Assembly: GCA_964608275.1 (NCBI GenBank)
Contig: CAZSNL010000002.1
Coordinates: forward strand, 15,088-79,087
Direction of reading: 5' to 3'
Origin: an uncultured Hyphomicrobiales bacterium
GTDB taxonomy: Bacteria; Pseudomonadota; Alphaproteobacteria; Rhizobiales; CAZSNL01
DNA length: 64,000 bases
Shown here: piece by piece, positions 19,016 through 63,487 of the stretch
Position numbering within the stretch: position 1 is the first letter of the stretch
Layout: every line of letters starts with the position of its first letter
Notes under the pieces: model-generated
Seen by the model: the letters and a program-made list of their open reading frames with translations, nothing else
Databases searched by the model: none
Told to the model about the DNA's origin: nothing
Made by a program: the position numbers and the translations under genes

Positions 19016-19037
19016 CGCACGCCGGGACCGACCAGCG

Positions 19038-42631: not shown

Positions 42632-42640
42632 CCGAACCTC

Positions 42641-45060: not shown

Positions 45061-45062
45061 CG

Positions 45063-48436: not shown

Positions 48437-49020
48437 GACTGTGAATGCCTCAGGCTGACAGGAACGGTATGCTTGGAGCCGGGAACTAGCTTCCCGTTGC
48501 GGAGCGCGAAGCGAATGACGGTGATCTCGTCACCGATGCGGGCGATATCGGTGCGGCCCTGATAAATGATCGTCGCATCATTGGGACTTTCGCCACGCGC
48601 GGTCACCTGCACATCGACGGGCACCGCGAGCTCGCAACCGCCGCGGTGGGTATAGAGGTGGAGATTGACGATGTACTCACCGTCGGGGAGGCCGCGGGTA
48701 TAGGCGTTCTCGTAGTTCAGATCGGAAAGATCCCCCTGGTGACCGAGGTCGTCACGCAGGAGATTGAACAACATGTCGGATTGATTGGAGTAGCCCACGG
48801 CCCGTCCCACCGGACCTTGAACCCAGAGGTCGACATCGGTGTGGCATTCGGGCGGCCATATCGTTTCGACGACCAGCGATCCCGGCGGGCGAAGTTGTTC
48901 CGCGGCCTTGGGCGGGTTGACCAGCGGCAACAGGACGACCACCAGGATCAGCAGGATGTCCAGAAACGTGATCTGCCAACTGTCCCGGTCTACGCCAGGT
49001 GGCGTGTCAGGCGCAGCCAT
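48433..49020 (-). CDS. TolR/ExbD/MotB-type single-pass anchor (Asp in TM) fused to a non-canonical beta-rich periplasmic domain
   Basis: Start ATG 49020 follows GGGGG and gives 195 aa. The TM segment WQITFLDILLILVVVLLPLV resembles the ExbD/TolR helix (xxLLDVxLVLLIFF) with its conserved Asp. The remainder (TDVDLWVQGPVGRAVGYSN...NYENAYTRGLPDGEYIVNLHLY) is not ExbD- or OmpA-like. The longer tracked ORF (to 49188) would run antisense-frame through the upstream gene. Confidence 0.55.
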   Translation of the reverse strand: MAAPDTPPGVDRDSWQITFLDILLILVVVLLPLVNPPKAAEQLRPPGSLVVETIWPPECHTDVDLWVQGPVGRAVGYSNQSDMLFNLLRDDLGHQGDLSDLNYENAYTRGLPDGEYIVNLHLYTHRGGCELAVPVDVQVTARGESPNDATIIYQGRTDIARIGDEITVIRFALRNGKLVPGSKHTVPVSLRHSQS

Positions 49021-49352
49021 TCGGCCCCCAATAGTCCGGCTATGGTGGTGTTGAACGCGGTGGCCATCCCCCCCAGTATGAGGTTGAAATCGCCGCCGGA
49101 ATTCGCTGCCACGATGGCGAGGCCGACGACAGTGCCAAACAGGCCGTAGCGCGGCAGGCCCGAAATCAGAAACTCCGTAACCCGCCATCTACCGACGGCC
49201 GCCGCCAAGAGTCCCACACCGGCCAGTGCGGCGATGAAGGCGGTCAACCGCGTCAGATCGTTTTCATAGAGGTACTGCGGCCAGCCGAGCCACCATGCGG
49301 CGATGAAGAGGCCGACGCCCACGACTTGCAAAATCAGGAACCTGGGGCTCAT
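48990..49352 (-). CDS. minimal MotA/TolQ/ExbB-family proton-channel protein (120 aa)
   Basis: It has four hydrophobic segments. The last two carry the family signature: YGLFGTVVGL (compare TolQ GLFGTVWG) and GGMATAFNTTIAGLLGA (compare GIAEALIATAIGL), including the conserved Thr positions. Confidence 0.7.
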   Translation of the reverse strand: MSPRFLILQVVGVGLFIAAWWLGWPQYLYENDLTRLTAFIAALAGVGLLAAAVGRWRVTEFLISGLPRYGLFGTVVGLAIVAANSGGDFNLILGGMATAFNTTIAGLLGAEWLRLTRHLA

Positions 49353-49621
49353 GTCCGACTACCACTTTGGATCATGCTCGCCGTTCCGAACGCCGCATCG
49401 TCACGAATTGTTCCCCTGTGACCCGCCACAGGGCTGGAGCAAAACGATGGAATGAGAGCCCCCGGAGAAAGGGTGTAACGCGGCAATGCCCTGCCGACAT
49501 GAACGACTGACCATTGTGGAACTTCACGCCCCGCCTATATCGGTCAGACCGGCACCTCGCTTGAAATGCGGGGGGCATTTGGCGTAGGGTCTGCCGCAGC
49601 CGAATGGCACCGGGTTGTCGT

Positions 49622-49698
49622 GCAGCTGTAGCTCAGTTGGTTAGAGCGCCTGATTGTGGATCAGGAGGTCGCTGGTTCGAATCCAGCCAGCTGTACCA
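49622..49698 (+). tRNA. tRNA-His (anticodon GTG), no encoded G-1, G1:U72, A73, encoded CCA
   Basis: The cloverleaf was folded by hand. Acceptor is GCAGCTG/CAGCTGT, D arm GCTC-AGTTGGTTA-GAGC, and anticodon arm CCTGA-TTGTGGA-TCAGG. The variable region is AGGTC, the T arm is GCTGG-TTCGAAT-CCAGC, and the 3' end is A-CCA. Total length is 77 nt. Confidence 0.93.
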
Positions 49699-49861
49699 AT
49701 AAAATCAATTTGCTGCGGGCGGCAGGCGCATGCCAGGCCCATTTCCCTGTGACCGTCGGCGAACATGATGGGGCCGATCGGTCCATCCCCCGCAGTTCAC
49801 TTCCCGCCGGTCACGAACCGACCGACAATTTAATCGGTTGAGGGTGTCAACGTCTGTCGGA

Positions 49862-50848
49862 TTACCCCACCAGCTGTCGTGATTCTGGTTTCTCACCGGT
49901 ATCACTCCAGCGGTGTCGAGCGGGAATGATCCGCCGGATGACACTCTCGCATGCCACGACCAGCCCCTCACGGAAAAACATCACGACAAGAAGAGTAAGG
50001 GCCGTGACCGTGACGAGTGTGTACTCGGCGCCAAAGCCACGGATCACGTGCTCGATGAGGCGAATGGAAGCGACCCCGATGAGTGCACCGTAGCGATGAC
50101 CAAGACCACCGACGACGGCCATCGCGACGACCATGCCCATCTCGTTTATGGAGAGCATGGACGGCGCCAGCACGCCGACATAGTTCGCATAGAAGGCGCC
50201 GGCGAGGCCTGCGACCGCCGAGGTGATCACGAACGCGGTGATCTTCACACGGAAGACGTTGACGCCCATTCCGCGGGCGACATTCTCTCCATCGCGCACA
50301 GCGGCCATCAGGAGGCCGAGCCGTCCATCCAGCACCAGGTTCTGGAGGAGGAAGTAGGTACCGACAAGGACGCCGGCGAGCACGAGGAAGGGCGCCCGCG
50401 AGATCCCTTCCACAAGACGCGGAATCGGCATGCCCATGGAGCCGCCGGTGATATCGGTCGCAGCGGACAGAAACACGGCGAAGGCGCCGGCGAATGCGAA
50501 GGTGATGAGCGGCAACTGCACGCCCCTGACCCGGAGTGAGACGAGGCCGAGGCCGTAGCCTACAATCGCCACCGCCAGGGGCATGAGCAGCAAACCCGCC
50601 CAGCCGGGAAGATCGAGGAGAAATATCACACCGGCGGTGCCGTATGCGCCAGCGGCAGCAAGTCCGATATGTGCGAAGGAATACTGGCCAGTGAAGCCCG
50701 CCAGCAGGTTCCAGGAACCAGCGAGCAGAAGATAATATGCCGATAGGATCACGAAGTCTTCAGATATCGGCGACAGCCCGGCGAAAGGAAGCAGGGCCCC
50801 GGCCAGGATGAACAGCGGCGGGACTGAGTGATGAGCGATCTTCGTCAC
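49862..50848 (-). CDS. livM: branched-chain amino acid-type (HAAT) ABC transporter permease, LivM-like
   Basis: 328-aa polytopic protein with the LivM-type block LLAGFTGQYSFAHIGLAAAGAYG. The start overlaps the upstream stop by 4 nt. The symbol is at family level only. Confidence 0.85.
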   Translation of the reverse strand: MTKIAHHSVPPLFILAGALLPFAGLSPISEDFVILSAYYLLLAGSWNLLAGFTGQYSFAHIGLAAAGAYGTAGVIFLLDLPGWAGLLLMPLAVAIVGYGLGLVSLRVRGVQLPLITFAFAGAFAVFLSAATDITGGSMGMPIPRLVEGISRAPFLVLAGVLVGTYFLLQNLVLDGRLGLLMAAVRDGENVARGMGVNVFRVKITAFVITSAVAGLAGAFYANYVGVLAPSMLSINEMGMVVAMAVVGGLGHRYGALIGVASIRLIEHVIRGFGAEYTLVTVTALTLLVVMFFREGLVVACESVIRRIIPARHRWSDTGEKPESRQLVG

Positions 50849-51591
50849 GACACCACTCCCGACCCCTTGTGTGCCATCCAGCCGCGAACGATGTCGTTCA
50901 GCCCCGCCTCGATTGCTGCAGCCGGCCCATCCGTGTCGTTGACCCCCATCGCCAGCACATACACATGGTCGGCAATCGCAAGGGCTTCGCGCACATTCTG
51001 CTCGACGAGCAGAACGGTCACCGCCCGGGCGTCCTTGAGCCGTGCAAGCTCCCGGTAGACCTCACGCACCATGATCGGGCTCAATCCCGCCGTCGGCTCG
51101 TCGAGGAGGAGGATGCGCGGTTCGCTCACAAGGCCGCGGGCGATCTCGACAAGCTTTTGCTGGCCACCGGAAAGCTCCCCCGCGCGACGGGCAAGATGAG
51201 GGCGAACGGACTCGAACATCTCGCCGCAATAGCGGATGCGCTCCTCGAGCCAGTTGCGATCCCGGCGCCGGTACCAGCCGCCGATCCGCAGATTTTCGGC
51301 AACCGTCATCTGGCCGAAGATTGAAGATTCCTGCGGCACGAACGACACGCCAAAACCCACGAGATCTACCGTGGAGCGCCTGTCTATGCGCGTGCCATCG
51401 AGCCAGATTTCGCCGCCTGTAACCGGCGCCACCCCCGCGATGCCCTTGAGGAGTGTCGACTTTCCGGCGCCGTTCGGGCCGATGATCGCCGTAATCGCGT
51501 TTGCGGCACCGTGCAGGGAAACTCCGCGCAGGATCTCGACTTCCCGCTCGTAGGCCACGCGCAAGTTCTGGATGTCAATGGCTGTGCTCAT
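50845..51591 (-). CDS. livF: HAAT ABC transporter ATP-binding protein, LivF-like
   Basis: Walker A is GPNGAGKST, the signature is LSGGQQKL, Walker B is LLLDEPTAGLSP, and LLVEQN is typical of LivF. Confidence 0.88.
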   Translation of the reverse strand: MSTAIDIQNLRVAYEREVEILRGVSLHGAANAITAIIGPNGAGKSTLLKGIAGVAPVTGGEIWLDGTRIDRRSTVDLVGFGVSFVPQESSIFGQMTVAENLRIGGWYRRRDRNWLEERIRYCGEMFESVRPHLARRAGELSGGQQKLVEIARGLVSEPRILLLDEPTAGLSPIMVREVYRELARLKDARAVTVLLVEQNVREALAIADHVYVLAMGVNDTDGPAAAIEAGLNDIVRGWMAHKGSGVVS

Positions 51592-52301
51592 GCGAGGTAG
51601 GCTTCCCGGACAGCCTTGTCGGCGCGGACTTCCTCGGGAGAGCCGCTGGCCAGGACCGTACCGCCAGCGAGAACGAGGACCCGCTGACAGAGATCAAAAA
51701 CCCAGGGCAAGTCATGGCTGATGACGACGAAACCGGTTCCGGCGTCGCGCATGGAGATGATGATCGAACGCATGACATCCATGATTGCCGGGTTGACGCC
51801 GGCGGTCGGTTCATCGAGGAGCGCGATGCGTGGCTTCGCAAGCAGCAGGCGGGCAAAGTCGATCAGCTTGCGCTGCCCGCCGGAAAGATGATCCGCCGTC
51901 CATTCGAGGACCGGTTCCAGCCCGACACGGGCCAGCGCCTCCGCGGCGGCGTGTTCGGCCTCACCACGCCGCATTCCTCGAACAATGCCGGCAACCGCCA
52001 CGTTCTGTAGTGCCGTGAGTTTCGCGAACGTGCCACCATTCTGAAAGGTCCGGAACATGGGACGGCGCGCGTGCGAGCTTGGATCGAGTCGCGTCACGTC
52101 GGCGCCGGCTATTCGGATTACGCCGCGGTCGACCAGAAACTGACCCGCCAGGAGGTTCAGGAGCGTCGTCTTGCCTGCCCCGTTCGGCCCGACAAGGGCC
52201 ACCAGTTCACCAGGTACGACATGGAGGTCTACGCCACGAACGGCGTTCACCCCACCGAACGACTTTGAAAGGCCCGAAGCCTCAAGGATCATCCCGCTCA
52301 T
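51588..52301 (-). CDS. livG: HAAT ABC transporter ATP-binding protein, LivG-like
   Basis: Starting at ATG 52301 (ATGA overlap with the livH stop): LEASGLSKSFGGVNAVRGVDL, Walker A GPNGAGKTT, signature LSGGQRKL. The 300-codon N-terminal extension in the ORF track overlaps livH and is spurious. Confidence 0.88.
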   Translation of the reverse strand: MSGMILEASGLSKSFGGVNAVRGVDLHVVPGELVALVGPNGAGKTTLLNLLAGQFLVDRGVIRIAGADVTRLDPSSHARRPMFRTFQNGGTFAKLTALQNVAVAGIVRGMRRGEAEHAAAEALARVGLEPVLEWTADHLSGGQRKLIDFARLLLAKPRIALLDEPTAGVNPAIMDVMRSIIISMRDAGTGFVVISHDLPWVFDLCQRVLVLAGGTVLASGSPEEVRADKAVREAYLA

Positions 52302-53191
52302 ACCGCCCTTTCCGCCCTGCCGAACAGCCCCTGGGGACGAAGAAGCAGAACGGCAATCATGAGCGCGAATCCGTAGGCATCCGTATAACCGCTGTCGACG
52401 TATACGGTGCCCAGCACCTCGACCATTCCGAGCAGGAGACCCGCGGCGAGCGCTCCGCCGATCGACCCCATGCCGCCGATGATAACCACGATGAACGCCT
52501 TGACGAGCGCCACCGTACCTGATGCCGGATAGACGAACATGAGAGGTGCAAGCAGTGCCGCAGCCACACCGGCGAAGGCACCCGCCGCAAGGAAGGCATA
52601 GTTCGCATATCTGTTGATGTCGATTCCGGCGACTGCGGCGCCCAGGGGATTCTCGGTCAACGCACGCCAGGCACGGCCAATGTCGGTTCTGTAGACGATC
52701 CAGAACAGAAGGCCGATCAGGATTATCGACGCCGCGAACGCGACAATCCGGTTTCCCGAAAGAAACACAAAGTCGAAGAGATTGAGGTTCTCGTTCCAGA
52801 ATCCCGGCAGCCTCCGGTAGGTCGTACCGAAAAGAAGAGTCGCCGCCGCAATCAAGAACTGACTCAGCATGAAGGTGGTGATGATGGTGTATTCGCCCTT
52901 CTGGCGCATGCGCGAGCGGTAGATTGGGCGAAGCACGACGAGATTGGTGGCTGCCGCAACCGCCGCTCCAGCCAGGGCCGCCGCCAAGAGCCCGAACCAG
53001 ACAGGCAACCCCAGTGCCGACACAGCGAAGACGGCGCCGAAACTCCCGAGCATTGCGAACTCGCCATGAGCGAAGTTCACGAGCCGGAGGACACCGAATA
53101 CCAGCGAGAGGCCGACGGCAAGGAGAGCATACAGTCCGCCCTGAAGGACCCCGAGGACAAGGGACTGTATGAGAAGCTGATCCACTGCCAT
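52298..53191 (-). CDS. livH: HAAT ABC transporter permease, LivH-like
   Basis: 297 aa. It begins MAVDQLLIQSLVLGVLQGGLYALLAVGLSLVFGVLRLVNFAHGEF, a typical LivH N-terminus. Confidence 0.9.
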   Translation of the reverse strand: MAVDQLLIQSLVLGVLQGGLYALLAVGLSLVFGVLRLVNFAHGEFAMLGSFGAVFAVSALGLPVWFGLLAAALAGAAVAAATNLVVLRPIYRSRMRQKGEYTIITTFMLSQFLIAAATLLFGTTYRRLPGFWNENLNLFDFVFLSGNRIVAFAASIILIGLLFWIVYRTDIGRAWRALTENPLGAAVAGIDINRYANYAFLAAGAFAGVAAALLAPLMFVYPASGTVALVKAFIVVIIGGMGSIGGALAAGLLLGMVEVLGTVYVDSGYTDAYGFALMIAVLLLRPQGLFGRAERAV

Positions 53192-53212
53192 CGGCCTCCG
53201 CCATCGACACCG

Positions 53213-54403
53213 TTACTTCACGACGTGGACGAGCGTGGCCTCGGCGTCACCATCGCCCACATTGTTGAGTTGCTTGAAGAACATTGCGAACTTGTCCCAC
53301 TGGTGGAAGTTCACGGTTCCCTCATCGTTGCGGAAGGCGATCTCGCCGATCGTCCCTTCGAACTGCACGTTCGGAAGCGTCTCCACGAGTTGCGCCGGGT
53401 CGGCCGTGCCGGCCTTCTCAATCGCGGCCTTCACGGCGTTGAAGTTGTCCCAGAGGTAGTACTGAAAGATTGCGGGCTCCACGCCGTATTCCTGATTGTA
53501 TGCGTCGATGAACTGCTGGCCGGTCGACGTAACCGTCATCGAAGCGTCACTGAACGTCGGATAGATCACGCCGACGCCCGCTTCACCCACCGTGTCCCAG
53601 AAGTCAGGCAGAAGCGGCCAGTCCCAACCTGTCACGATGTCCGCTTTCAGCCCGACTTCCCGACCCTGCTTGATGCTGAGGTTGGTTGCGGTGAAGACCG
53701 TTTGCACGATCACCACGTCCGGCTCCATCGCCTTGACGCGCGACATAACCGCCGTCAGGTCCTGGGTCTGCGCCTGGAACTGAACGATTTCCAGATCGAA
53801 ATCCTTGTCCTTTGCCGCTTCTTCGAAGGATTTCGCAAAACCCAGCCCATAGGCAGTATCCTCCGCGAGGACGACTACCTTCTTGTACCCCCGTGCCTCT
53901 ACAAAGGGCGCCATCTGCGCGGCGATCTGGCTGTTGTAGGGGCCAATACGAAAAACCTGCGGGTAGTTCTTTCCGGTGAACTCGTCCGCCCAGGTGTAGA
54001 ACGCCAGGATGGGCACGTTGTAGCGCTTGGCCACCTCCATCTGGGCCAGGGCTACACTTGACGACCATATGCCGAGAATTGCGGACGCATGGCCCTCCGT
54101 GACAGCGCGCTCGACAGCGGCAGCACCGACCTCGACCTTGCCCTGGTCGTCATAGACAGCGAGCCTGACCTTCTTGCCGTCGATGCCGCCCGCCTCGTTG
54201 GTCATCTTGACCCAAAGATCCGCGGTCTTCTTGATTGCCTCTCCCGAGCGGGCATCGCCCGGCTCCGACAATGGCGAGACCAGGCCGAGTATGATCTCGT
54301 CATCGGCGCCCTGAACGACAGACGGTATCGCCGCCATGGCGGCAAGGCCAACGGCCGTCCCGATCACTGCTCGACGAGTGAGCCCTAAGCCCCTCCTGTT
54401 CAT
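53213..54403 (-). CDS. HAAT-family periplasmic substrate-binding protein (LivK/Amide-urea type) with Tat-like signal
   Basis: Starting at ATG 54403: MNRRGLGLTRRAVIGTAVGLAAMAAIPSVVQG (a twin-arginine-like motif). A type I PBP fold sequence follows (ILGLVSPLSEPGD..., LAVYDDQGK). Confidence 0.85.
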   Translation of the reverse strand: MNRRGLGLTRRAVIGTAVGLAAMAAIPSVVQGADDEIILGLVSPLSEPGDARSGEAIKKTADLWVKMTNEAGGIDGKKVRLAVYDDQGKVEVGAAAVERAVTEGHASAILGIWSSSVALAQMEVAKRYNVPILAFYTWADEFTGKNYPQVFRIGPYNSQIAAQMAPFVEARGYKKVVVLAEDTAYGLGFAKSFEEAAKDKDFDLEIVQFQAQTQDLTAVMSRVKAMEPDVVIVQTVFTATNLSIKQGREVGLKADIVTGWDWPLLPDFWDTVGEAGVGVIYPTFSDASMTVTSTGQQFIDAYNQEYGVEPAIFQYYLWDNFNAVKAAIEKAGTADPAQLVETLPNVQFEGTIGEIAFRNDEGTVNFHQWDKFAMFFKQLNNVGDGDAEATLVHVVK

Positions 54404-54493
54404 GCTCCTGCTCCTCTGTTCCAGTTGCTGACTCTTTTCACGTTCCACCCCGGCTTTCGCTTGCCGACAGGTTGGCGGCATCGTTCTCTCGCC

Positions 54494-55531
54494 TCACGTT
54501 GGCGAATGTTCTGGCGCCGTTGCCGAGCGGATCCCGGCCCTGACCTGCTCGACCAGATCGCGCCGGATCGCCACGCCCAGTTCCTCCGCTTTCCGTCGCG
54601 CAGCCGCCCTGCGACTGCCAGGCAACCTCACGCCCTCCTGTTCCTCGATGGCAGTCAGGAGACTGGCGATGCGGTCGCCGAACAGACCACCGGAAGTCGT
54701 CTCCGCATCGATTGCGACAAAGAACTGTCCGGTTCTCGGTGGCCCGCCTGCGGGCCCCGAGAACGGGCTGGCGTCGATGCTGAGGACGGCGCCGCTCGCA
54801 GCGGCGGCCATAACCTCGACCATGAGCGCGACACCTACTCCCTTGTAGCCGCCTGCGGGCGCCATCGTGCCCTTCAACGCCAGATCTGGATCGGTAGTCG
54901 ATTTACCGTCCGGGCCGAACGCCCATCCGACCGGGATTGTCTCTCCCGCCCGTTTCCGCCTCATGATCTCGCTCTTGGCGATGACACTGGCGCTCTGGTC
55001 GATGCAGATCGCCGCGCCGCCCGCCCCGTCGGGAACGGCGAGGGAGATGGGGTTGGTTCCGAAAACCGGGCGGCGCCCTCCGACGGGTGCGATAGATGCC
55101 GGCGCGTGGGTGAACCCAAGGCCGATGAGTCCAGCCTGAGCGATCCGCTCGGTGTGATAGCCGAGTACACCGCAATTGTACGAGTTGCGGATCGCCAAAA
55201 CCGCTACGCCCTGTTCTCGAGCTGCAGGCAGGAGCTGCTGGAAGCCAGCATCGATCGCAGGATGAGCGAACCCGGACTTGGCGTCGACGACGATGACGGA
55301 GGGCTTCGGTCGCGAAACGGTGGGTACGGCCTTGCCGTTCACCTTGTTGCAGCGAAGATGCTCACAATAAGTCGGGACATAAGCGAGGCCATGGCTTGGC
55401 AGCCCGTCAGCCTCGGCCGCGGCCACTGCCCGAGCGAGCGAACGTGCCGCCTCCTCCCTGGCGCCGGCGGATGCAAGCGCCTCAAACGCGAGCGTCTCTA
55501 CATCGGCTATTGCAACGACTGTGCCCGGCAT
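54494..55531 (-). CDS. Ldh_2-family (malate/L-lactate/sulfolactate dehydrogenase type 2) NAD(P)H oxidoreductase
   Basis: 345 aa with family blocks: GLPSHGLAYVPTYCEHL, NSYNCGVLGYH, GTNPISLAVP and GGYKGVGVALMVEVMAA. Confidence 0.85.
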   Translation of the reverse strand: MPGTVVAIADVETLAFEALASAGAREEAARSLARAVAAAEADGLPSHGLAYVPTYCEHLRCNKVNGKAVPTVSRPKPSVIVVDAKSGFAHPAIDAGFQQLLPAAREQGVAVLAIRNSYNCGVLGYHTERIAQAGLIGLGFTHAPASIAPVGGRRPVFGTNPISLAVPDGAGGAAICIDQSASVIAKSEIMRRKRAGETIPVGWAFGPDGKSTTDPDLALKGTMAPAGGYKGVGVALMVEVMAAAASGAVLSIDASPFSGPAGGPPRTGQFFVAIDAETTSGGLFGDRIASLLTAIEEQEGVRLPGSRRAAARRKAEELGVAIRRDLVEQVRAGIRSATAPEHSPT

Positions 55532-55557
55532 TCGACTGTCCTCAAATCACCTCGACC

Positions 55558-56226
55558 TCAATCATTGTCGATCTCGCCGCCGCCGGCTCCGCGGCGGCGT
55601 GACAGGTCCGAGGCCGGGACATAGGTCAAGTGCGCAAGCCGCTCGAAACGCTGCCAGAGGTCAGGGTCAACGCATGCACCGAGCCAGGCAGGATCGGGCG
55701 AGTTCCTGACATCGCATTCTTCTGCCGATCGGCACGTCACTGTTGCCACGATCGTGAGATGGATGAGGTGGTCGACATCGCCACCACAGGCGCCATTCGG
55801 CCAGACCACCACGCCGCTACTCGGCCACTCGATCTTAGCCGGGCGCTGGCAGGTGCGGGCAACCGTAATGACGAACGGGATCAACAGAACCGGATGAACC
55901 ACGGGGCCCGTGGTGATGACACGACCGTTGCGGATCTCCCCCGCGTGATCGGCAATAACCGGGCCGAGGACCAATGGGCTGAGCGGCCCGTGACTGCCAC
56001 GCCAATTCCCGCGATCGTGGTCGATCCTGGATGCGATCCCACCACCCGCAGAGTGACTTTCGAGCACGTCGGCGAGGGGTCGAAGCGCCTCAAAGCCGTG
56101 CTCAACCAGCTTCCGAGCCGCCTTGCCGGCCTCCTCCGCCTGTCCCCAGCTGAGGCCAGCTCCGCGGGCCGCCTTCCGAACTGCAGCATCGATCTCGTTG
56201 ATGGACACGTGCATCGTCAATGCCAC
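55558..56226 (-). CDS. DUF3726-like protein
   Basis: The N-terminus SINEIDAAVRKAARGAGLSWGQAEEAGKAARKLVEHG matches my recollection of the DUF3726 N-terminal block. The start is either 56226 (10-nt overlap with the upstream gene) or 56214. Confidence 0.55.
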   Translation of the reverse strand: MALTMHVSINEIDAAVRKAARGAGLSWGQAEEAGKAARKLVEHGFEALRPLADVLESHSAGGGIASRIDHDRGNWRGSHGPLSPLVLGPVIADHAGEIRNGRVITTGPVVHPVLLIPFVITVARTCQRPAKIEWPSSGVVVWPNGACGGDVDHLIHLTIVATVTCRSAEECDVRNSPDPAWLGACVDPDLWQRFERLAHLTYVPASDLSRRRGAGGGEIDND

Positions 56227-57995
56227 TCGTCGATCGGCGGAAGCGCCCAGTCATCCGGTTCACTTGAGTGGAGTTCGTCAGGGAACGGTGCGTGCTGGTA
56301 CATCACGATTCTTACCCAGCGGTCGGACTTCGGATCGAACCGTGTCGCGCCGAAAAACGAGAGCTTGCAGCGAAGGAGATCGATCGGGCGTACAGCCGCA
56401 TCGATAAGGTTGTCGCGAATTTCAGCATACGGCCGGCGGCCCGTCGTTTGAATGCGACGAACCACGTGCCGGAACTCGGGAAACGCCATCAGGAATGTCG
56501 CGACGGTTTCCTTCCCTTCCCAGCCAACGAGTGCGTCATTCAGAGCAATGACATCGCGGGCGATGGTTAGCGGCTGCTCGCGATCCGCCCCAGGCTCTTC
56601 GTAGCGTTCACCAAGCCGAGGCTCGAGCTTCTCCTCCGACACGTACCAGAACCGTGCCTGGGTGGCGGGCCGGGAGAAGTCTATCCCGAAGGCAAATGCG
56701 TAATGCTTGCGGACAAGATCGCGAAGCGTGCCAAGACGCATGTCGCCATCGATGGGAAAGTCGCGCTCCTCGTCGGCGGCCATGGTGTTCGCAAGATCGT
56801 CGACCAGATCGCCGTACGGCTCGATCATCAGCGTGACGAGAAACTCCTGCCCCTCGACGCTCAGCCTGTCTTGGGCCCAGGTAAAGAGCGTGTCCCAGGG
56901 CCGAGTGCCATCAAGCACGCCGGTCGCAAGATGATCCTCGAGCAGAGCGAGATCAGCCTCGAGCGCGGCGATCCGGGCGGATTGGATTTCGTCCGCAACG
57001 CGCCATTGGGAAGCGTGGTATCGGGCGCGAGCGATATAATCGCGGAAAGCCGACACACGATCGGCCGAGGCAGACCGCAGCGCGCGGACACGAGCGAGCG
57101 CGGTTTCCCGCGCCGAAATCCAGTGATCCAGCAGAACCTGATGGTTGAACAGGAAGGGCGCCATGCCGAGCCCGGTCGAATTGCCAACGCCCAGATGCCG
57201 ACGGATGGCCTTGTCGAGCCGCGTCGCGGTCACCGGTGCCTGAACGTGAGCCATGTGCTCGGCCAGATCGACGGTGAACGCCCTAATGAGCCAGATGGCG
57301 AGCATCTCCGCACTGAAAGGCCCAGCGAACTCCGGCCGATTGGCGATGCGCTCCCTGTCCGAAAGACCGAACTTCCCACCGCCGTAGACGGCCGTGGTGC
57401 GCATCAGGTAACCCACCCTTTCAATCTCGGCCGGATCAGGCTGTGCGCCCTGCCTCAGCCGGCTCACCACATGCTCGAACAGACGAACACTCTTGTTGGC
57501 TCGCGAAAGAACGATCTCCTGGGCGGTATAGCGACCCGCCTCCTGCAGCGGGACGTTCCGAGCCAGACGCTCAATGGTTTCGTCACTGGCGTCGCCGTCG
57601 TGCAGTGCAAATGTTGCGTCCCATTCATCGGCGATGACGCGATCACTGCGCTTCGCCGGATCGAGATCGTGAGCAAAGCAGACGAGGCTGTAGGTTCGGC
57701 CGTTTCCTCGCACGCGGTAGACGGCAATACCCTCGCCCTTGGCATCAACCCGCCAGCGGGGGCGATCGGCCTGCCATTTCTCTGCCCTAAGCCTGCGCAG
57801 CAGTACGCGCATGAAGCTGAGACGCGTCTGGTGGAAGCTTCCGAGGCGCGCGAGCCGCATGACGTAGTCCGGCTCGCGGAGGGTCAGCGCCTCCGGCGGC
57901 CGATCGCCCGCCGCCTCCAATGCGGCATGACTGTGAAGGGGACCTGCCATGACGGCCCCGAGACCCAGATCCTGTTCGCTATTCAAACTCACCAC
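56217..57995 (-). CDS. large conserved-looking hypothetical protein (592 aa), no recognisable family
   Basis: The ORF is uninterrupted with high GC3 and is tightly packed between the M19-like and DUF3726-like genes. I recognise no Walker, Rossmann, metal or TM motifs. The composition is soluble and mixed alpha. Confidence 0.6.
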   Translation of the reverse strand: MVSLNSEQDLGLGAVMAGPLHSHAALEAAGDRPPEALTLREPDYVMRLARLGSFHQTRLSFMRVLLRRLRAEKWQADRPRWRVDAKGEGIAVYRVRGNGRTYSLVCFAHDLDPAKRSDRVIADEWDATFALHDGDASDETIERLARNVPLQEAGRYTAQEIVLSRANKSVRLFEHVVSRLRQGAQPDPAEIERVGYLMRTTAVYGGGKFGLSDRERIANRPEFAGPFSAEMLAIWLIRAFTVDLAEHMAHVQAPVTATRLDKAIRRHLGVGNSTGLGMAPFLFNHQVLLDHWISARETALARVRALRSASADRVSAFRDYIARARYHASQWRVADEIQSARIAALEADLALLEDHLATGVLDGTRPWDTLFTWAQDRLSVEGQEFLVTLMIEPYGDLVDDLANTMAADEERDFPIDGDMRLGTLRDLVRKHYAFAFGIDFSRPATQARFWYVSEEKLEPRLGERYEEPGADREQPLTIARDVIALNDALVGWEGKETVATFLMAFPEFRHVVRRIQTTGRRPYAEIRDNLIDAAVRPIDLLRCKLSFFGATRFDPKSDRWVRIVMYQHAPFPDELHSSEPDDWALPPIDEWH

Positions 57996-59053
57996 CGTAC
58001 CGACCTGCCGGCGTCGGTTGTGATCCGACCTTCGTTGTCTGAGGGTGGCAGATGACGTGTCGCTGGCTCATGTGATGCCCGGCGCGGGTCGAACGAGACC
58101 TCGAAGAACCTGAGCCAGTTCAGACCCAAAATCTGGTCGACTTCCTCTTCCGAGAACCCCACCTCGCGCAGGCCATCTGCGATATTTCCAAAGTCGCGGT
58201 TTGATCTGAACCAGGACGGCTGGGGAGGAAAACCCTGGGAGACGGTCGGCGTCTCCTTCGTCCACTTGCCGCGGCGCATCCACTCGACTACGGAAGCCGG
58301 CTGGTCTTGGCACAGGTCAGAGCCGATGCCGATTGCGTCGACCCCTATGAGTTCAGCGGTCCGGGCAACCATCTCGCAAAAACCTTCGAGGGTGCAATCG
58401 GAGGAACCCTTCAGGTGATACGGATAGAGGCTGAATCCCAGCATTCCGCCCGATTGCCCGAGTGCCTTCAGCACGTGGTCCGGCTTGTTACGGGCCACCG
58501 AATGCCAGGATCTCGGGTTCGCATGGGTAATGGCAATGGGCCGCTCGGAAATCTCAATCGCCTCGATCGTCGACCGGTCACCCGAATGCGACATGTCGAC
58601 TACCATGCCAAGGCGGTTCATCTCGCCGATGACCTCGCGCCCCATGCGGGTGATGCCGGCATCGTCGCTCTCGTAGCATCCGGCCGCGAGAAGACTCTGG
58701 TTGTTGTAGGATAGCTGCATAAACCTCACGCCGAGCGTGTGGCAGATCTCGATCAGACCGATATCGTCCTCGATCGGAGAACTATTCTGGAATCCGAAGA
58801 AGACCGCGGTGCGACCTTCAGCCTGCGCGCGGCGGACATCGCCGGCATCGCGGCCGTGAAAGATAAGATCGGGAAATTGAACGAACCAAGTGTTCCATTG
58901 CGTGATGTTCTGTACCATCTCAGCAAAGTCTTCGTGGTATGCGATGGTGACATGAATGGCCGTCACCCCACCAGCGATCAGATCACGGAAAATGGATTCC
59001 GAGTAATTGCAATACTGCAAGCAATCAACGATGATCCGTTTTCTATCATTCAT
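57989..59053 (-). CDS. M19 (renal/membrane dipeptidase) family amidohydrolase-fold protein, divergent N-terminal metal motif
   Basis: M19 blocks are present: GVRFMQLSYNNQS, GMVVDMSHSGDRS, PIAITHANPR, IGIGSDL. The N-terminal position that is normally (V/I)DGHxD reads IIVDCLQY. The start is taken at MNDRK (59053). Confidence 0.78.
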   Translation of the reverse strand: MNDRKRIIVDCLQYCNYSESIFRDLIAGGVTAIHVTIAYHEDFAEMVQNITQWNTWFVQFPDLIFHGRDAGDVRRAQAEGRTAVFFGFQNSSPIEDDIGLIEICHTLGVRFMQLSYNNQSLLAAGCYESDDAGITRMGREVIGEMNRLGMVVDMSHSGDRSTIEAIEISERPIAITHANPRSWHSVARNKPDHVLKALGQSGGMLGFSLYPYHLKGSSDCTLEGFCEMVARTAELIGVDAIGIGSDLCQDQPASVVEWMRRGKWTKETPTVSQGFPPQPSWFRSNRDFGNIADGLREVGFSEEEVDQILGLNWLRFFEVSFDPRRASHEPATRHLPPSDNEGRITTDAGRSVRW

Positions 59054-59062
59054 ACGGCACAC

Positions 59063-60538
59063 TTACTGCGGCTGACCGGCGTTGATGTACGACGTTTTCG
59101 TGACTGTATAGAATTCAATCGCCGCGCGCCCTTGCTCGCGAGGCCCGTACGAAGAATTCTTCCGGCCGCCGAAAGGCACATGATAGTCGGTTCCTGCGGT
59201 CGGCAGGTTCACCATCACGCAGCCTGTCTTGACATTGCGCCGGAAGTGCGTGGCCCGCGCCAAAGACCGGGTCATGATGCCCGCGGTGAGGCCGTAGTCG
59301 GTATCATTGACGATTGCCAACGCTTCATCGTAGCTGTCGACCGCGATCACACAGGCAATCGGCGCAAACATCTCCTCGCGATTCACCCGCATGTCGTTAC
59401 GCGAATTCACGAACAGGGCGGGCGTGAGATAGTAGCCTTCGGTCCGGCGCTGGACGCGTTCGCCTCCCCACGCGAGTTCGCAGCCCTCGCTTCTTGCCAG
59501 CTCGATATACCCAAGTGCGGATTTCAGCTGCTTGTCATCGACAAGTGGTCCGATCTGAACACCGTCGTCCAAAGCGTGCCCAATCTTCAGGGACTTCATC
59601 TCCTGAACGAGCTTTTCGACGAACGTGTCATGGACCTTGCGGTGCACGACCAGCCGCGAGGACGCGGTACATTTCTGCCCGGATCCGAAGAAGGCGCCAT
59701 TCAGCGCATGAGCCACAGCTAGATCAATGTCGGCATCATCCATCACGACGAGCGCATTCTTTGATCCCATCTCCAGCTGAAGTCTTGTCAGGTTGGGGGC
59801 ACACGCAATCGCAACCGCGCGGCCAGTCTTGTAGGAACCGGTCAGCGAGATCGCATCCACGTCCGGGCATTCGACGAGGCCATTACCAACGGTCGAGCCC
59901 GGGCCCATGACAAGGTTGAACGTGCCGGCGGGAAGCTCCTGGCGACTTATGATCTCGGTCAGAGCCCAAGCGGAGGCCGGCGTCAGATTCGACGGTTTCC
60001 AGATCACGGCATTGCCAAAGGCGAGCGCCGGGGCAATCTTCCAGCTCGCTGTCGCCATCGGGAAGTTCCAGGGCGAGATGACAGCGACGACGCCGACCGG
60101 CTCGCGTCGAACGTCAATCTCAATACCAGGTCGGACTGATTCGGCGGTCTCGCCATGTTGGCGAAGCGCTTCAGCGGCAAAGAACTGGAAGAACTGACCG
60201 GCGCGGAAGACCTCGCCGACGCCCTCGGCCCGGGGCTTTCCCTCTTCCCGCGACAAGAGTTCGCCAAGTTCGGCACTTCGGATACAGAGTTCATTGCCGA
60301 TGGCCATTAGAACTCTGTGGCGTGTCTCTATCGGGCTACTGCTCCAGACAGCGCAACCACGCCTTGCAGCATTGATTGCAGTAGTGAGCTGGTCCACATC
60401 GGCTTGCGCGTAATCGCCAACGGTGTCGCTGAGATCGGACGGATTGATGTTCGGGATCGAGTCGTTGCTCGTTGCCCAGACACCATCGATGAAATTTGCG
60501 TATACCTCTGACACAGCCCTGCGCCCGGATCTCACCAA
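59063..60538 (-). CDS. NAD(P)+-dependent aldehyde dehydrogenase
   Basis: ALDH motifs are present: VISPWNFP, the catalytic Glu region QLEMGSKNA, the catalytic Cys FFGSGQKCTASSR, and EEMFAPI. The start may be a few codons downstream (VSEVYANFIDG). Confidence 0.9.
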   Translation of the reverse strand: MVRSGRRAVSEVYANFIDGVWATSNDSIPNINPSDLSDTVGDYAQADVDQLTTAINAARRGCAVWSSSPIETRHRVLMAIGNELCIRSAELGELLSREEGKPRAEGVGEVFRAGQFFQFFAAEALRQHGETAESVRPGIEIDVRREPVGVVAVISPWNFPMATASWKIAPALAFGNAVIWKPSNLTPASAWALTEIISRQELPAGTFNLVMGPGSTVGNGLVECPDVDAISLTGSYKTGRAVAIACAPNLTRLQLEMGSKNALVVMDDADIDLAVAHALNGAFFGSGQKCTASSRLVVHRKVHDTFVEKLVQEMKSLKIGHALDDGVQIGPLVDDKQLKSALGYIELARSEGCELAWGGERVQRRTEGYYLTPALFVNSRNDMRVNREEMFAPIACVIAVDSYDEALAIVNDTDYGLTAGIMTRSLARATHFRRNVKTGCVMVNLPTAGTDYHVPFGGRKNSSYGPREQGRAAIEFYTVTKTSYINAGQPQ

Positions 60539-60566
60539 CCGCGCACAAGCGTAGGGCAGATTGGCA

Positions 60567-60613
60567 TTTCAATCGATCGAGAAAAACTTTAGGCTATTTC
60601 AGTTTTATTGAAA
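60567..60613. promoter_or_regulatory. two dyads in the lysR/aldH divergent region (TTTC-N10-GAAA and TTTCA-N7-TGAAA; LysR T-N11-A-like)
   Basis: The 85-nt intergenic region is AT-rich. TTTCAATCGATCGAGAAA is at 60567-60584 and TTTCAGTTTTATTGAAA is at 60597-60613. Pattern match only. Confidence 0.3.
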
Positions 60614-60623
60614 CGCCACGGAC

Positions 60624-61553
60624 ATGCGCCTTTCCATTTCAAGCTTGCGCGTTTTTGTTGCCGTCGCGGAGGCGGGCAGCATCGTTGCTGCGGCGGAGAA
60701 GATCGGCCGGACTCCGTCTTCGGTGTCGATGACACTCAAGCAGATCGAGGAGGATATCGGCAGCCCCCTGTTCGAAACTGAACGGAAGAACCGACTGTCA
60801 AAGGTTGGAGCGTTCGTCGACGCCCAGGCGCGCGAACTCTTGAGCCATTACGAACGAACCATGGCATCCATGCACGCGTTCGCAAGGAACGCGATCGGAC
60901 GTGTTGACGTCGCATGCGTGCCATCAGTAGCAACGACGATCCTGCCCGAGGTGATCTCCCAGTTCCGGACGCAATGGCCAGCAGTCGAATTCGACATTCG
61001 CGATGCTGATTCAAGAACCGTCATCGAGGCAGTGGAAGCCGGCAAGGTCGAAGTCGGGATCGCCAGCATGAGGCGCGAACGTTCGGCAATTAGGTTCGAA
61101 CCGCTTTTCAAGGAACCACTTGGTGTGATCTGCCGAGATGATGATCCGCTTACCAGAGCCGCGGATCCGCTCCCCTGGCGCGCACTTGAAGGTCGCGTCT
61201 TGCTTGCCAACGGGATCTCCGATGCGATCGACAATCCCGAGTTCAAGCAAATCCTGACCGGCTCCCCGATCATCGTCTATAACGTGCTGTCGCTGATTGC
61301 CATGGTGCGATCGGGTGTCGGGGTTACCGTGCTGCCCCGGCTGTCGATTGCCAGTTCGGCTACTGATATCGCTTTTGTTCCGTTAGCCGACCCCGGCGCG
61401 GTCCGCGTTGTCGGACTCCTGTCCCGCGCGACCGGGCATGGGTCTCCCGCGGTAGCTGCCTTCGTCGAGATTCTGAAAACCGCGCTTTGCCAGAACGGCG
61501 GCGAGTACGGCATCAACCGGTTGTTTGAGCCGCCGAGAGGATTGCGGCCTTAG
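60624..61553 (+). CDS. LysR-family transcriptional regulator
   Basis: The N-terminal HTH is LRVFVAVAEAGSIVAAAEKIGRTPSSVSMTLKQIEEDIG. It has an LTTR co-inducer domain length (309 aa) and is divergent from the catabolic operon. Confidence 0.9.
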   Translation: MRLSISSLRVFVAVAEAGSIVAAAEKIGRTPSSVSMTLKQIEEDIGSPLFETERKNRLSKVGAFVDAQARELLSHYERTMASMHAFARNAIGRVDVACVPSVATTILPEVISQFRTQWPAVEFDIRDADSRTVIEAVEAGKVEVGIASMRRERSAIRFEPLFKEPLGVICRDDDPLTRAADPLPWRALEGRVLLANGISDAIDNPEFKQILTGSPIIVYNVLSLIAMVRSGVGVTVLPRLSIASSATDIAFVPLADPGAVRVVGLLSRATGHGSPAVAAFVEILKTALCQNGGEYGINRLFEPPRGLRP

Positions 61554-61725
61554 CAGAACAAGGGAAAAGAAGGAGCTCCCGGCGTTACGCCCTGCCGTCT
61601 GGCAAAGGCAATTCTGCATGCGCCAAGCGGCAACCAAGCGGCGGCGTGATCACCAGCTATATCGCCGCACCCCATGAACTGCTCCGCTGAGCGGACCGCC
61701 TGGCGACGCCCCATGAACTTCCTGT

Positions 61726-61741
61726 GAGCGCTTTCGCGCTC
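61726..61741. terminator. short GC hairpin (GAGCGC-TTTC-GCGCTC) between the convergent lysR and ZIP genes
   Basis: It has a perfect 6-bp stem and a 4-nt loop, with no U-tract on either side. Possible weak bidirectional terminator. Confidence 0.2.
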
Positions 61742-61779
61742 GGCATTGGCTCTGCCTCCGCCTGAAACTGCAGGCACAT

Positions 61780-62562
61780 TCATCCCAATGTCACATCCAG
61801 GAACAGCATGATGACGAGGCCGATGGCCAGGCCGAGAGTGGCTCTGTTCTGATGCCCGCTGCGATGCGTCTCCGGGATGATCTCGTGGCTGATGACGTAC
61901 AGCATCGCGCCCGCCGCGAATGCCAGCCCCCACGGCAACAGCGGTTGCGCCAGGACCATCGCACCGGCCCCGAGGACACCGCCTACGGGCTCCACGAGTC
62001 CTGTCAGGGCAGCTATTCCCCAGGACCGCCTTCTTGAATATCCCTCGCCGAGCAAGGAGACGGCCACAGCCAGTCCTTCGGGTGCATTCTGAAGCCCGAT
62101 CCCGATTGCAAGCGCGAGTCCCCCGGAAACACCGTCGGCGCCGAACGCAACGCCAACGGCAAGACCCTCGGGGAAGTTGTGGATCGTAATCGCAAAGATG
62201 AACAGCCACACCCGTCGCAACGATGCCGCCCGTGGCCCCTCGCGCCCCGTATCGAAGTGCTCGTGCGGCAGCCGCTCGTTCACCAGGGCGACGGCACCCA
62301 TCCCGAGGAGGATTGCAAGGCAGACGATCGCAGCCGGAGCGGCGGCGTGCTCAAACTGCAGCCCGGCAGCATCCAGCGCGGGAACGATCAGCGAGAAGAA
62401 GGATGCTGACAACATGACGCCCGCAGCGAACCCGAGCAGCAAATCCCGTGTCGCCTGCGAGGGAACCCGACCGAACAGCACCGGAACAGCACCGACAGCT
62501 GTCATCATTCCCGCTACGAGGCTGCCAAGGAATCCGAGCGTCAACGGAGAGAAAGCGTCCAC
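61780..62562 (-). CDS. ZIP-family (ZupT/GufA-like) divalent metal transporter
   Basis: 260 aa with 8 TM segments and ZIP signatures: ITIHNFPEGLAVGVAF, GIGLQNAPEGLAV and SHEIIPETH. Confidence 0.88.
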   Translation of the reverse strand: MDAFSPLTLGFLGSLVAGMMTAVGAVPVLFGRVPSQATRDLLLGFAAGVMLSASFFSLIVPALDAAGLQFEHAAAPAAIVCLAILLGMGAVALVNERLPHEHFDTGREGPRAASLRRVWLFIFAITIHNFPEGLAVGVAFGADGVSGGLALAIGIGLQNAPEGLAVAVSLLGEGYSRRRSWGIAALTGLVEPVGGVLGAGAMVLAQPLLPWGLAFAAGAMLYVISHEIIPETHRSGHQNRATLGLAIGLVIMLFLDVTLG

Positions 62563-62842
62563 GTGGACACCTCATGAATGCCTTTCATGAAGGAAGACAC
62601 CGATGGAGGCCCGAGCGCAAATCACGCACAGAACACGGTCAGACCTCTGCCACCGCCAGCAGTGCACCCCCAGGGTTCTGGACATCAGTGCGGTGTCTAT
62701 TCCACAGCAGCAGCATCGGAATCGCGCGTTAGGAGGAACGCCTCCATTGTCGTAACGGGGCCTGACATTGGTCTGCGAACGTGAAACAATCATCGAACAG
62801 CAGCGTTCAAGGGTATCACCTTTCCTCAGGCGGAGAATTCCC

Positions 62843-63487
62843 ATGCGCCTATATCCCATGAAATTGGTTGCCGCGGCCGGTGCGGTCGCCGGCTTCCTCG
62901 GGCTTGCTCTTGCGGCCCACGCCGCCAACCTGCCGGCATCGGCCGTACGCGGCGTGCAGGCGGCCGGCGAAGACGGCCTCGTCAAGCAGGTACAGGATCG
63001 TCGCCGCGCGGGACGGTCGGGCCGGAGCGCTCGCCGCAGTGCGCGCAGTGGCCCACGCAGGGCAACCCGCAGCGCCAGGCGCGCGACCCGGAGCGCCCGA
63101 CGAGCACCGCGACGCGCGGCGCGCAGCAGCCGGCGAGGCGTTCGTACGGCGAGACGGGCACCGCGCAGAGCGATCCGCAACAGCCGCCGCGGGGTTCGCA
63201 CCGCGCGACGCGCACCCCGGTTCGTCGATCGCCGTGCGCGCCGGGTGGCCCGCTTCTACAACCGCAGAATCCATGGCCCCCGTTACCGTTATCGGCGTCC
63301 GGGGTTCGTGCACTTCCATCTCGGCTGGTGGTATGCAACGCCGTGGTGGGTCGCCACGGTTCCGATCTACAGGCACAGCTATCGGGTGGCTACCAGCTGC
63401 GACTACTGGGCCGACCGATGTGCCGCCAACTGGGGCTTCGATAACGTGGATTACTACGGCTGCCTGCGATACCACGGTTGCTACTAG
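62843..63487 (+). CDS. secreted arginine-repeat protein with aromatic/Cys-rich C-terminal domain (hypothetical)
   Basis: ATG 62843 is preceded by GGCGGAGAA. The signal peptide is MKLVAAAGAVAGFLGLALAAHA|AN. About 110 aa of R-x-x-R repeats follow (RRATRSARRATRSARRAPRRAARSSRRGVRTARRAPRRAIRNSRRGVRTARRAP). The sequence ends with GWWYATPWWVATVPIY and a four-Cys tail (C-x6-C-x13-C-x5-C). Confidence 0.5.
   Translation: MRLYPMKLVAAAGAVAGFLGLALAAHAANLPASAVRGVQAAGEDGLVKQVQDRRRAGRSGRSARRSARSGPRRATRSARRATRSARRAPRRAARSSRRGVRTARRAPRRAIRNSRRGVRTARRAPRFVDRRARRVARFYNRRIHGPRYRYRRPGFVHFHLGWWYATPWWVATVPIYRHSYRVATSCDYWADRCAANWGFDNVDYYGCLRYHGCY

Follow-up and report, generated by a model that had tools for sequence, protein, structure and literature searches.

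The present study analyzes an open reading frame (ORF) of 592 codons, at positions 56217-57995 of the minus strand, in a stretch of 64,000 nucleotides (nt) from contig CAZSNL010000002.1 of an uncultured Hyphomicrobiales bacterium; this whole stretch is referred to here as the window. The closest described system is homABCDER, the catabolic operon for homarine (N-methylpicolinate) (Ferrer-Gonzalez et al., Nat Microbiol 2026, PMC13236597), and by synteny, gene sizes and taxonomy the 592-amino-acid (aa) protein is very probably an orthologue of HomB within such an operon. The complete explanation, in which the window encodes the hom pathway and this HomB orthologue opens the substrate ring together with HomA, is given a probability of roughly 0.78.

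In Cobetia sp. OBi1 the order of genes is homE, homA (about 700 nt), homB (about 1,700 nt), homT, homC, homD and homR, with homT annotated as a glycine-betaine transporter, homC as a peptidase and homD as an aldehyde dehydrogenase; homB is ACFLL8_11500 in this strain and SPO3189 in R. pomeroyi, where the hom genes run from SPO3188 (homA) to SPO3192 (homR) (PMC13236597). Adjacency of homA and homB was reported for 97.7% of 11,755 genomes, and hom operons were also reported from soil and freshwater genomes; the presence of homE was variable, either beside homA or beyond homD, and the gene was absent from 94% of alphaproteobacterial hom operons (PMC13236597). Transposon mutants of R. pomeroyi in homB, homC, homD or homR did not grow on homarine, deletion of homD abolished growth on homarine in Cobetia, and the only Cobetia genes induced by homarine were the hom cluster, a sox/mgd-folD cluster and motility genes (PMC13236597). 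An AlphaFold heterodimer of HomA and HomB scored 0.92-0.95, and N-methylglutamate dehydrogenase, which acts downstream, was noted to be often misannotated as "sarcosine oxidase" (PMC13236597). The same authors proposed a functional analogy with TgnA/TgnB of Acinetobacter, a two-component oxygenase by which the ring of trigonelline is opened (N-methylnicotinate) (PMC13236597). An independent paper gives SPO3188 as "hypothetical protein", and a literature search for "DUF3726" returned no papers.

Comparison of the window with described hom operons

The ORF is certainly a genuine gene. It runs uninterrupted for 1779 nt from a GTG start to a TGA stop, with a GC content of 0.70/0.46/0.72 at the three codon positions, the same pattern as is seen in the neighbouring genes. 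A GTG at 57992 and an ATG at 57950 are possible alternative starts. At its upstream end the start overlaps the stop codon of an M19 gene in the sequence GTGGTGA, by 7 nt or, with the second GTG as start, by 4 nt, and at its downstream end 2 nt separate the TGA from the ATG of a DUF3726 gene. On public metagenome contigs with an identical protein, independent pipelines call the same 592 aa, preceded by a 354-aa M19 protein and followed by a 218-aa DUF3726 protein. A preliminary description, made from the letters alone, had presented this as a long, clean ORF packed between an M19 gene with a 7-nt overlap and a DUF3726 gene, and both statements were borne out by the uninterrupted frame, the neighbour-like codon composition, the 2-nt gap on the DUF3726 side and the concordant boundaries. 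It had also named fusion or misassembly as what might undo it; there was no sign of fusion, frameshift or misassembly, with homologues of 545-582 aa collinear from end to end. Among public metagenome assemblies, 31 indexed blocks contain the exact protein between the same flanking genes (including L085-L087: Logan SRR33696255 and SRR33696299, ENA ERZ23461240), so the source organism evidently recurs in sequenced environments.

Gene order and sizes in the window reproduce those of the hom operon: LysR, aldehyde dehydrogenase (ALDH), M19, the 1779-nt gene, a 657-nt gene, Ldh_2 and a transporter. On the minus strand the order is ALDH, M19, the 592-aa protein, DUF3726, Ldh_2 and a five-gene Liv-type ABC importer, with the LysR gene divergent, and the M19, ALDH and LysR genes all lie within 5.4 kb. 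The features are as follows.

56217..57995, minus strand: homB candidate, the 592-aa protein; confirmed ORF, syntenic with the published hom operon, predicted large subunit of a HomA-HomB ring-opening enzyme
55558..56214, minus strand: homA candidate, 218-aa DUF3726 protein (657 nt), obligate partner of HomB; Pfam PF12525, E=6e-17
57989..59053, minus strand: homC candidate, 354-aa M19-like amidohydrolase; Pfam Peptidase_M19 (PF01244), E=2.5e-74
59063..60514, minus strand: homD candidate, 483-aa aldehyde dehydrogenase; Pfam Aldedh, E=6e-156, start taken from public gene calls
54494..55531, minus strand: homE candidate, 345-aa Ldh_2-family oxidoreductase; Pfam Ldh_2, E=3.5e-90
60624..61553, plus strand: homR candidate, divergent LysR-type regulator; Pfam HTH_1 and LysR_substrate
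60598..60612, in the homR-homD intergenic region (60515-60623): candidate HomR operator, dyad TTCAGTTTTATTGAA (LysR-type T-N11-A box), read from the sequence
49862..54403, minus strand: five-gene Liv-type ABC importer, likely the substrate importer; Pfam Peripla_BP_6 on the binding protein, ORF coordinates (binding protein 53213-54403; permease 52298-53191; ATPases 51588-52301 and 50845-51591; permease 49862-50848)

The likeness to the published HomB of R. pomeroyi and Cobetia is that of a domainless protein from a gene of about 1.7 kb that adjoins a homA of about 0.7 kb, with the same operon order and taxonomic range. In the window the gene has 1779 nt and encodes 592 aa, in the class of the proteins of about 570 aa that have no annotated domain; it immediately adjoins the DUF3726 gene, 2 nt away; and homC and homD candidates occur within 10 kb together with the regulator homR.

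The co-occurrence analysis suggested in the preliminary description was made on 80 related loci from reference genomes, spanning Rhodobacterales, SAR116, Hyphomicrobiales, several Gammaproteobacteria, Variovorax, Gordonia, Acidimicrobiales, Haliangium and others. The DUF3726 gene lies directly downstream of the homologue of the 592-aa protein in 75 loci and an M19 gene lies upstream in 63, while an ALDH gene is present in 44, a LysR gene in 31 and an Ldh_2 gene in 18. The Ldh_2 gene is beside DUF3726 in most of the latter and between LysR and ALDH in L034 and L054, and these two positions are the two given for homE (PMC13236597). We infer that homE is the Ldh_2 gene, its family being unnamed in the main text of that paper. 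The taxa also agree, as Rhodobacterales, SAR116, Gammaproteobacteria and non-marine lineages are all reported to carry hom operons (PMC13236597). Between M19 and the homologue of the 592-aa gene, 19 of the 80 loci have a gene for a protein of about 520 aa that matches the betaine/carnitine/choline transporter (BCCT) family of Pfam (E=3e-144), for which reason a quaternary-amine substrate was suspected.

The five catabolic genes of the window share 53-72% identity with their counterparts in marine loci of identical order from Rhodobacterales and SAR116, and the 592-aa protein itself is 53-57% identical to proteins of Ruegeria sp. TM1040, Phaeobacter and Sulfitobacter in identical operons. On the Ruegeria sp. 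TM1040 megaplasmid the order is LysR, ALDH, membrane dipeptidase, BCCT, hypothetical protein, DUF3726 and Ldh-family protein, beside "sarcosine oxidase" genes. A replicon of Vibrio campbellii has LysR, ALDH (62%), M19 (51%), a gap and then HomB (39%). The ABC-transporter variant seen in the window occurs on a plasmid of Mesorhizobium sp. 131-2-1 from Lotus (L082), in which HomB and HomA are fused (7004-9448), and an ABC importer also follows the hom genes in L001.

The preliminary description had placed the gene in a catabolic operon with M19, DUF3726 and Ldh_2 neighbours and an adjacent ABC importer, which Pfam and synteny confirm. The importer is indeed present, yet in this lineage it takes the place of homT, the BCCT transporter of the 19 related loci, and this Liv-type importer in place of the BCCT ("GBT") protein distinguishes the window from published hom operons. 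A second difference, from most alphaproteobacterial hom operons, is that homE is retained. Hydroxyproline, ectoine or dipeptide catabolism as the pathway, and an AcnX-like two-subunit dehydratase as the enzyme, were considered and dropped once the full gene order matched the hom operon. The pathway is degradation of an N-methylpyridinium osmolyte to N-methylglutamate and not peptide catabolism, and the preliminary description was outdated in treating the protein as one of no recognisable family, since the family has been named HomB, with a genetic phenotype, since March 2026 (PMC13236597). In this sense a characterised family was found, but the characterisation is genetic and not biochemical.

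The HomB family and its partner HomA

There were at least 8000 clusters matching the 592-aa protein in a database of 5.8 billion proteins, the top homologues having E values of about 1e-242, 60-68% identity and coverage of 92-97% of its length, and an exhaustive profile search gave 1843 representatives at the 50%-identity level. As to curated libraries, the statement that no family could be recognised holds for every one tried. The Pfam scan gave no match even at E<=10, and the NCBIfam and PADLOC scans gave none. A single-sequence search of the PDB returned arginine kinase (E=1.5 over 74 residues) and a profile search of the PDB with the HomB family returned nothing better than a coiled-coil chimera (E=0.07), both of which were treated as noise. 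One homologue, P0355, from a plasmid of Tritonibacter scottomollicae, has a UniRef name beginning "Zorya protein", which neither Pfam (E<=10) nor PADLOC supports and which was set aside as spurious; it appears to be a propagated misannotation.

About 55 positions are kept in at least 93% of 224 diverse members, down to 29% identity, and these are mostly Arg, Asp, Glu, Trp, Tyr and Gly. Conserved arginines are R63, R67, R119, R155, R165, R171, R199, R238, R460, R464, R514 and R542, conserved acidic residues D118, D126, E297, E384 and E392, and conserved aromatic residues W74, W125, W292, W450, Y196 and Y451. In the 224 sequences there is one conserved His, H285, and no conserved Cys, and an iron-sulfur or Cys-ligated metal centre in HomB is unlikely. 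All four blocks that had looked conserved from the single sequence fall on columns that do not vary in the family alignment: H55/R58/S60/F61/R63/R67 in the first, M198-Y204/G207/K208/G210 in the second, G269/G271/N272/T274-G277/P280/F281/H285/W292 in the third and W450/Y451/E455-R460/R464 in the fourth.

The suggested modelling and fold search gave a confident model with no fold match in the PDB. The AlphaFold2 model of HomB, built from a 40-sequence alignment, has a predicted template-modelling score (pTM) of 0.86 and a mean predicted local distance difference test (pLDDT) of 81.8, with six to seven strands in an alpha/beta part towards the N-terminus (about residues 35-270) and a long helical part towards the C-terminus. 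Foldseek of this model against the whole PDB gave nothing significant (best E=0.75, template-modelling (TM) score about 0.1). That best match, YgiF (CYTH-CHAD; E=0.75, TM 0.10), and assorted kinases (Foldseek probability <=0.04) were rejected as folds for HomB, and a CYTH-like tunnel with inward-facing Arg was briefly considered and found no support. Two invariant Gly-rich elements, YGxGKFG (204-210) and GVGNxTGLG (269-277), are each flanked by a predicted strand and a predicted helix and have low pLDDT, and neither fits a canonical motif. These would be mobile loops that shut over a ligand of negative charge, which might be the phosphate of a nucleotide or the carboxylate of the substrate. 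It had been stated that the protein lacks any nucleotide-binding motif; this stands for canonical motifs, but the two Gly-rich elements together with the approximately 12 invariant Arg could form a phosphate- or carboxylate-binding site.

HomB-HomA fusions of about 810 aa, with DUF3726 at the C-terminus, make up about one third of the top 120 homologues (e.g. P0024, P0007, P0010), a classical Rosetta-stone sign of two proteins that function together as a unit. As the gap between homB and homA in the window is just 2 nt, a small indel would suffice to fuse both genes. There was also a divergent subfamily of fusions of 840-960 aa (P0210, P0216, P0238, P0250, P0252, P0256, P0259, P0262 and others), in which a longer HomA-like C-terminal extension matches only the first 60 or so and the last 35 or so positions of the HomA profile and ends in another conserved tail, LLVPxxxE..LRP..DPLKxF. 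This subfamily may act on another substrate.

In the HomA alignment a block at the N-terminus, SLNEIEALAxKAARGAGxxWGLAEEAG, is conserved, and the tail at the C-terminus, RTYxPxxExSRxxGAGAGLxDND, is highly so (RTYxPxxExSRxxGAGAGxxDND as given for the homA candidate of the window). Its fold was examined in a model of the 814-aa Mesorhizobium HomB-HomA fusion (P0024), with a pTM of 0.61 overall and pLDDT 85-95 in the HomA domain; the HomB part was modelled more poorly and the model was not used to infer an interface between the two proteins. The top Foldseek matches of the HomA domain (about residues 596-795 of P0024) were nearly all Ldh_2 proteins, with probability up to 0.99 and E 0.06-1, over 140-160 aligned columns at a root-mean-square deviation of 3.7-4.2 A, and comprised type-2 malate/lactate dehydrogenases, AllD (ureidoglycolate dehydrogenase), DpkA, sulfolactate dehydrogenase and YiaK. 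Profile-profile comparison (hhalign) of the N-terminal block with the Ldh_2 N-terminus gave a weak match of 58 columns (E=0.0017, probability 15%). With modest statistical support, HomA appears to have an Ldh_2-like fold and a weak N-terminal similarity to this family, a genuine member of which, homE, is often encoded next to it, but at about 215 aa it is about 125 residues shorter than Ldh_2 proteins such as AllD, DpkA, ComC and YiaK (about 340 aa), and the invariant Ldh_2 motifs SHG and GTNP are absent from its alignment. The best description, from the model, is of a putative truncated and degenerate Ldh_2-like domain that is not a member of the Ldh_2 family. HomB itself showed no relation to Ldh_2, and the idea that it might be the "missing half" of the Ldh_2 fold of HomA was discarded (hhalign probability 0.3%). 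Pattern-based tools may have taken the GAGAG tail of HomA for a dinucleotide motif; its pLDDT in the fusion model is below 50, and it is probably disordered.

Proposed chemistry and alternative explanations

Isotope tracing has followed homarine (C7H7NO2) to N-methylglutamate (C6H11NO4) and glutamate with the N-methyl group kept, through labelled intermediates C7H9NO5, C6H9NO4 and C6H9NO3 (PMC13236597). As one carbon is lost and N-C(COOH) is kept, cleavage between C5 and C6 is the simplest route, C6 leaving as formate and C5 becoming the gamma-carboxylate. We infer ring opening by HomAB, its dependence on O2 and the substrate of each downstream enzyme as follows. A HomB-HomA complex would carry out the first committed step, in which the N-methylpyridinium ring is activated and opened between C5 and C6, so that homarine + O2 + 2[H] would give C7H9NO4, an N-formyl-N-methyl amino-enal. 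The ALDH, HomD, would oxidise this aldehyde to C7H9NO5, and the M19 amidohydrolase HomC would act as a deformylase, adding H2O and releasing HCOOH to leave C6H9NO4, an enamine or imine. Where present, the DpkA-like Ldh_2 reductase HomE would add 2[H] to give N-methyl-L-glutamate, which would enter metabolism as glutamate; C6H9NO3 would be the prematurely deformylated aldehyde. Uptake in the window would be by the Liv-type ABC importer instead of HomT, and the operon would be controlled by the divergent HomR.

These assignments draw on relatives of each enzyme. M19 "dehydropeptidases" hydrolyse N-acyl-alpha,beta-dehydroamino acids, and a compound of this type, an N-formyl-N-methyl-dehydroamino acid, is the proposed substrate of HomC as a deformylase. 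The proposed imine-reductase role of HomE is supported by its nearest solved relative, the imine reductase/N-methyl-amino-acid dehydrogenase DpkA. Ring opening falls to HomAB by elimination, since HomC and HomD have recognisable chemistry and no other ring-cleaving candidate is induced in Cobetia. That this opening is oxygenolytic is an evenly balanced proposal.

Several observations weigh against this reading. The literature reports no enzyme activity for HomA or HomB, and HomB has no oxygenase, flavin-binding or metal-binding signature, so that O2-dependent cleavage is without structural support; neither its sequence nor its model gives a hint of how it would deal with O2 or a reductant. The published formulas also fit another order, in which C7H9NO5 loses CO2 to give C6H9NO3 and the ALDH then forms C6H9NO4. 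R. pomeroyi, which has no homE, still makes N-methylglutamate (PMC13236597), so the last step cannot rest on HomE alone. The flavin adenine dinucleotide (FAD)-binding motifs claimed for HomA (PMC13236597) were not reproduced with Pfam, and the fold search points to Ldh_2 instead. Orthology to SPO3189 and ACFLL8_11500 is proposed from synteny, gene sizes and taxonomy and not from a direct alignment, and R. pomeroyi (SPO3189) was not listed by name in database searches that started from homologues of Leisingera and Ruegeria denitrificans. Finally, the source is apparently a non-marine alphaproteobacterium with an ABC importer, and the physiological substrate might be a homarine analogue.

The last point leads to the alternative that survives best, although it is an unlikely one: that family and chemistry are the same and the substrate is another N-alkylated pyridinium or heterocyclic carboxylate, for instance a homarine analogue of plants or soil, imported by the ABC system. 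Replacement of the BCCT-type HomT by a Liv-type importer in the window is consistent with this, as is the non-marine origin of the closest relatives (a Methylobacteriaceae metagenome-assembled genome and the Mesorhizobium plasmid from Lotus), and the describers of the operon caution that presence of the genes outside the sea does not prove function (PMC13236597). Transporter swapping is common, however, and is alone no sign of a new substrate, and hom operons are known from soil and freshwater genomes (PMC13236597). The paralogous module on pSymB of S. meliloti (L083, CP130050.1 1323402-1334506) bears on both sides. It consists of IclR, a HomB-like protein, a 242-aa hypothetical protein, M19, an ABC transporter, an aminotransferase and succinate-semialdehyde dehydrogenase (SSADH); its HomB-like protein is full-length (29% identity, profile E=6e-100) and is followed by a small protein and an M19 dipeptidase, but regulator and accessory enzymes differ and the 242-aa protein is undetected by the HomA profile. 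The pSymB module probably acts on some other substrate and does not belong among the HomB orthologues, which suggests that the triad of HomB, small subunit and M19 has been reused for a different compound and shows that the module has diversified. Against this 29%, the five catabolic genes of the window are far closer to the marine loci, in the range already given, and homarine remains the preferred substrate.

It is still less probable that the HomA-HomB pair acts later in the pathway, as an isomerase, hydratase or reductase, and that an unlinked housekeeping enzyme opens the ring. The missing oxygenase, flavin and metal signatures of HomB would fit such a role, as would the resemblance of HomA to an NAD(P)H-dependent dehydrogenase fold and the formation of N-methylglutamate in R. 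pomeroyi without HomE, where another hom protein may perform the reduction. However, HomA lacks the catalytic motifs of Ldh_2, homarine induces no other ring-cleaving candidate in Cobetia (PMC13236597), and no markers of the pathway are more specific or better conserved than HomA and HomB. A non-catalytic function of the 592-aa protein, as scaffold, chaperone or sensor, is scarcely credible, and so is an artefactual ORF. No catalytic motif or fold is recognisable, and the preliminary description had left open either an enzymatic or a scaffold role. However, the positions conserved at 93% or more across the 224 sequences form a pattern of the kind expected where an active site binds its ligand, a homB mutant does not grow on homarine (PMC13236597), and the ORF aligns collinearly with thousands of homologues and has identical calls on independent assemblies; of the two roles the enzymatic one is therefore probable and the scaffold disfavoured.

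HomAB, for which ring opening is the preferred reading, can be compared with TgnAB. In both cases two proteins act on isomeric N-methylpyridinium carboxylates, an aldehyde dehydrogenase follows, and a stoichiometry of substrate + O2 + 2[H] fits the homarine intermediates. In contrast, HomB matches no flavin-dependent monooxygenase family or fold, and HomA, for which Pfam gives only DUF3726 and Foldseek gives Ldh_2, showed neither a flavin-reductase signature nor a fold match to flavin reductases. The resemblance, judged by these family and fold matches, is one of task and not of family; the evidence speaks against HomAB being simply another of the two-component flavin oxygenases and points to an enzyme of new architecture. 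A bolder proposal, which is possible but more doubtful than the oxygenolytic step itself, is that HomAB represents the first known case of a new class of enzymes, a catalyst of pyridinium ring opening that combines an unseen fold with a degenerate Ldh_2-like domain and is not of the TgnAB type. One possibility in such a class would be direct hydride transfer from NAD(P)H to the pyridinium, followed by oxygenation or hydration of the dihydropyridine. If true, this would mean that the module has diversified into paralogues (pSymB, the 840-960-aa fusions) that open other N-heterocycles.

Surroundings of the gene and significance

Canonical M19 renal dipeptidases carry DGHxD, with the HxD metal ligands, at the N-terminus. 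The Pfam M19 match of the homC candidate starts only at profile position 35 and its N-terminus reads IIVDCLQY, while the corresponding stretch is VIDGLII in its closest PDB relative, 2i5g ("amidohydrolase", E=3.5e-61). On this sequence comparison HomC and 2i5g may form an M19 subgroup apparently without the N-terminal HxD motif, perhaps with an altered metal site. The top NCBIfam matches of the homD candidate are 2,5-dioxovalerate dehydrogenase and KGSADH (alpha-ketoglutarate-semialdehyde), both below cut-offs, and the closest PDB relative of the homE candidate is delta1-piperideine-2-carboxylate reductase DpkA (1wtj/2cwf, E=8e-51). Beside the start codon of the LysR gene, TTCA-N7-TGAA occurs in 13 of 20 related divergent intergenic regions, and in the window a second ATTTCA-initiated element, ATTTCAATCGATCGAGAAA, lies about 30 nt from the dyad TTCAGTTTTATTGAA. 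Generic scans of the operon for sigma-70 promoters and terminators gave sites no more frequent than in shuffled sequence.

The G+C content at third codon positions of predicted genes is 0.82-0.89 in the left part of the window (1-20000) compared with 0.68-0.77 around the hom operon (42000-62000), with bulk GC as low as about 0.58 at 58-61 kb. Horizontal acquisition of the hom region is possible and would fit the presence of the operon on 168 plasmids. Farther along, at 62572-63487, overlapping ORFs on both strands translate to repetitive Arg/Ala-rich sequence (RRAxRxARR...), and at 63099-63216 Tandem Repeats Finder gives a tandem repeat with a 54-nt unit in 2.2 copies (76% match).

The case shows that conserved ORFs of catabolic operons that belong to no Pfam family may already be explained by very recent literature. 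Homarine is among the most abundant small nitrogen-containing metabolites of the surface ocean, the hom operon occurs in SAR11, SAR116 and Rhodobacterales, and HomB is its most specific marker, the gene used to track homarine breakdown in metatranscriptomes. To a family known genetically since 2026 the window adds one more putative HomB orthologue, in an ABC-importer variant of the operon that keeps homE. The view of the family is sharpened here in that HomB has no detectable relative among solved structures, HomA appears to be a cut-down Ldh_2-like protein, and the two are often fused. The intermediates reported for the pathway can be distributed singly over HomD, HomC and HomE, which would leave the opening of the ring to HomAB.

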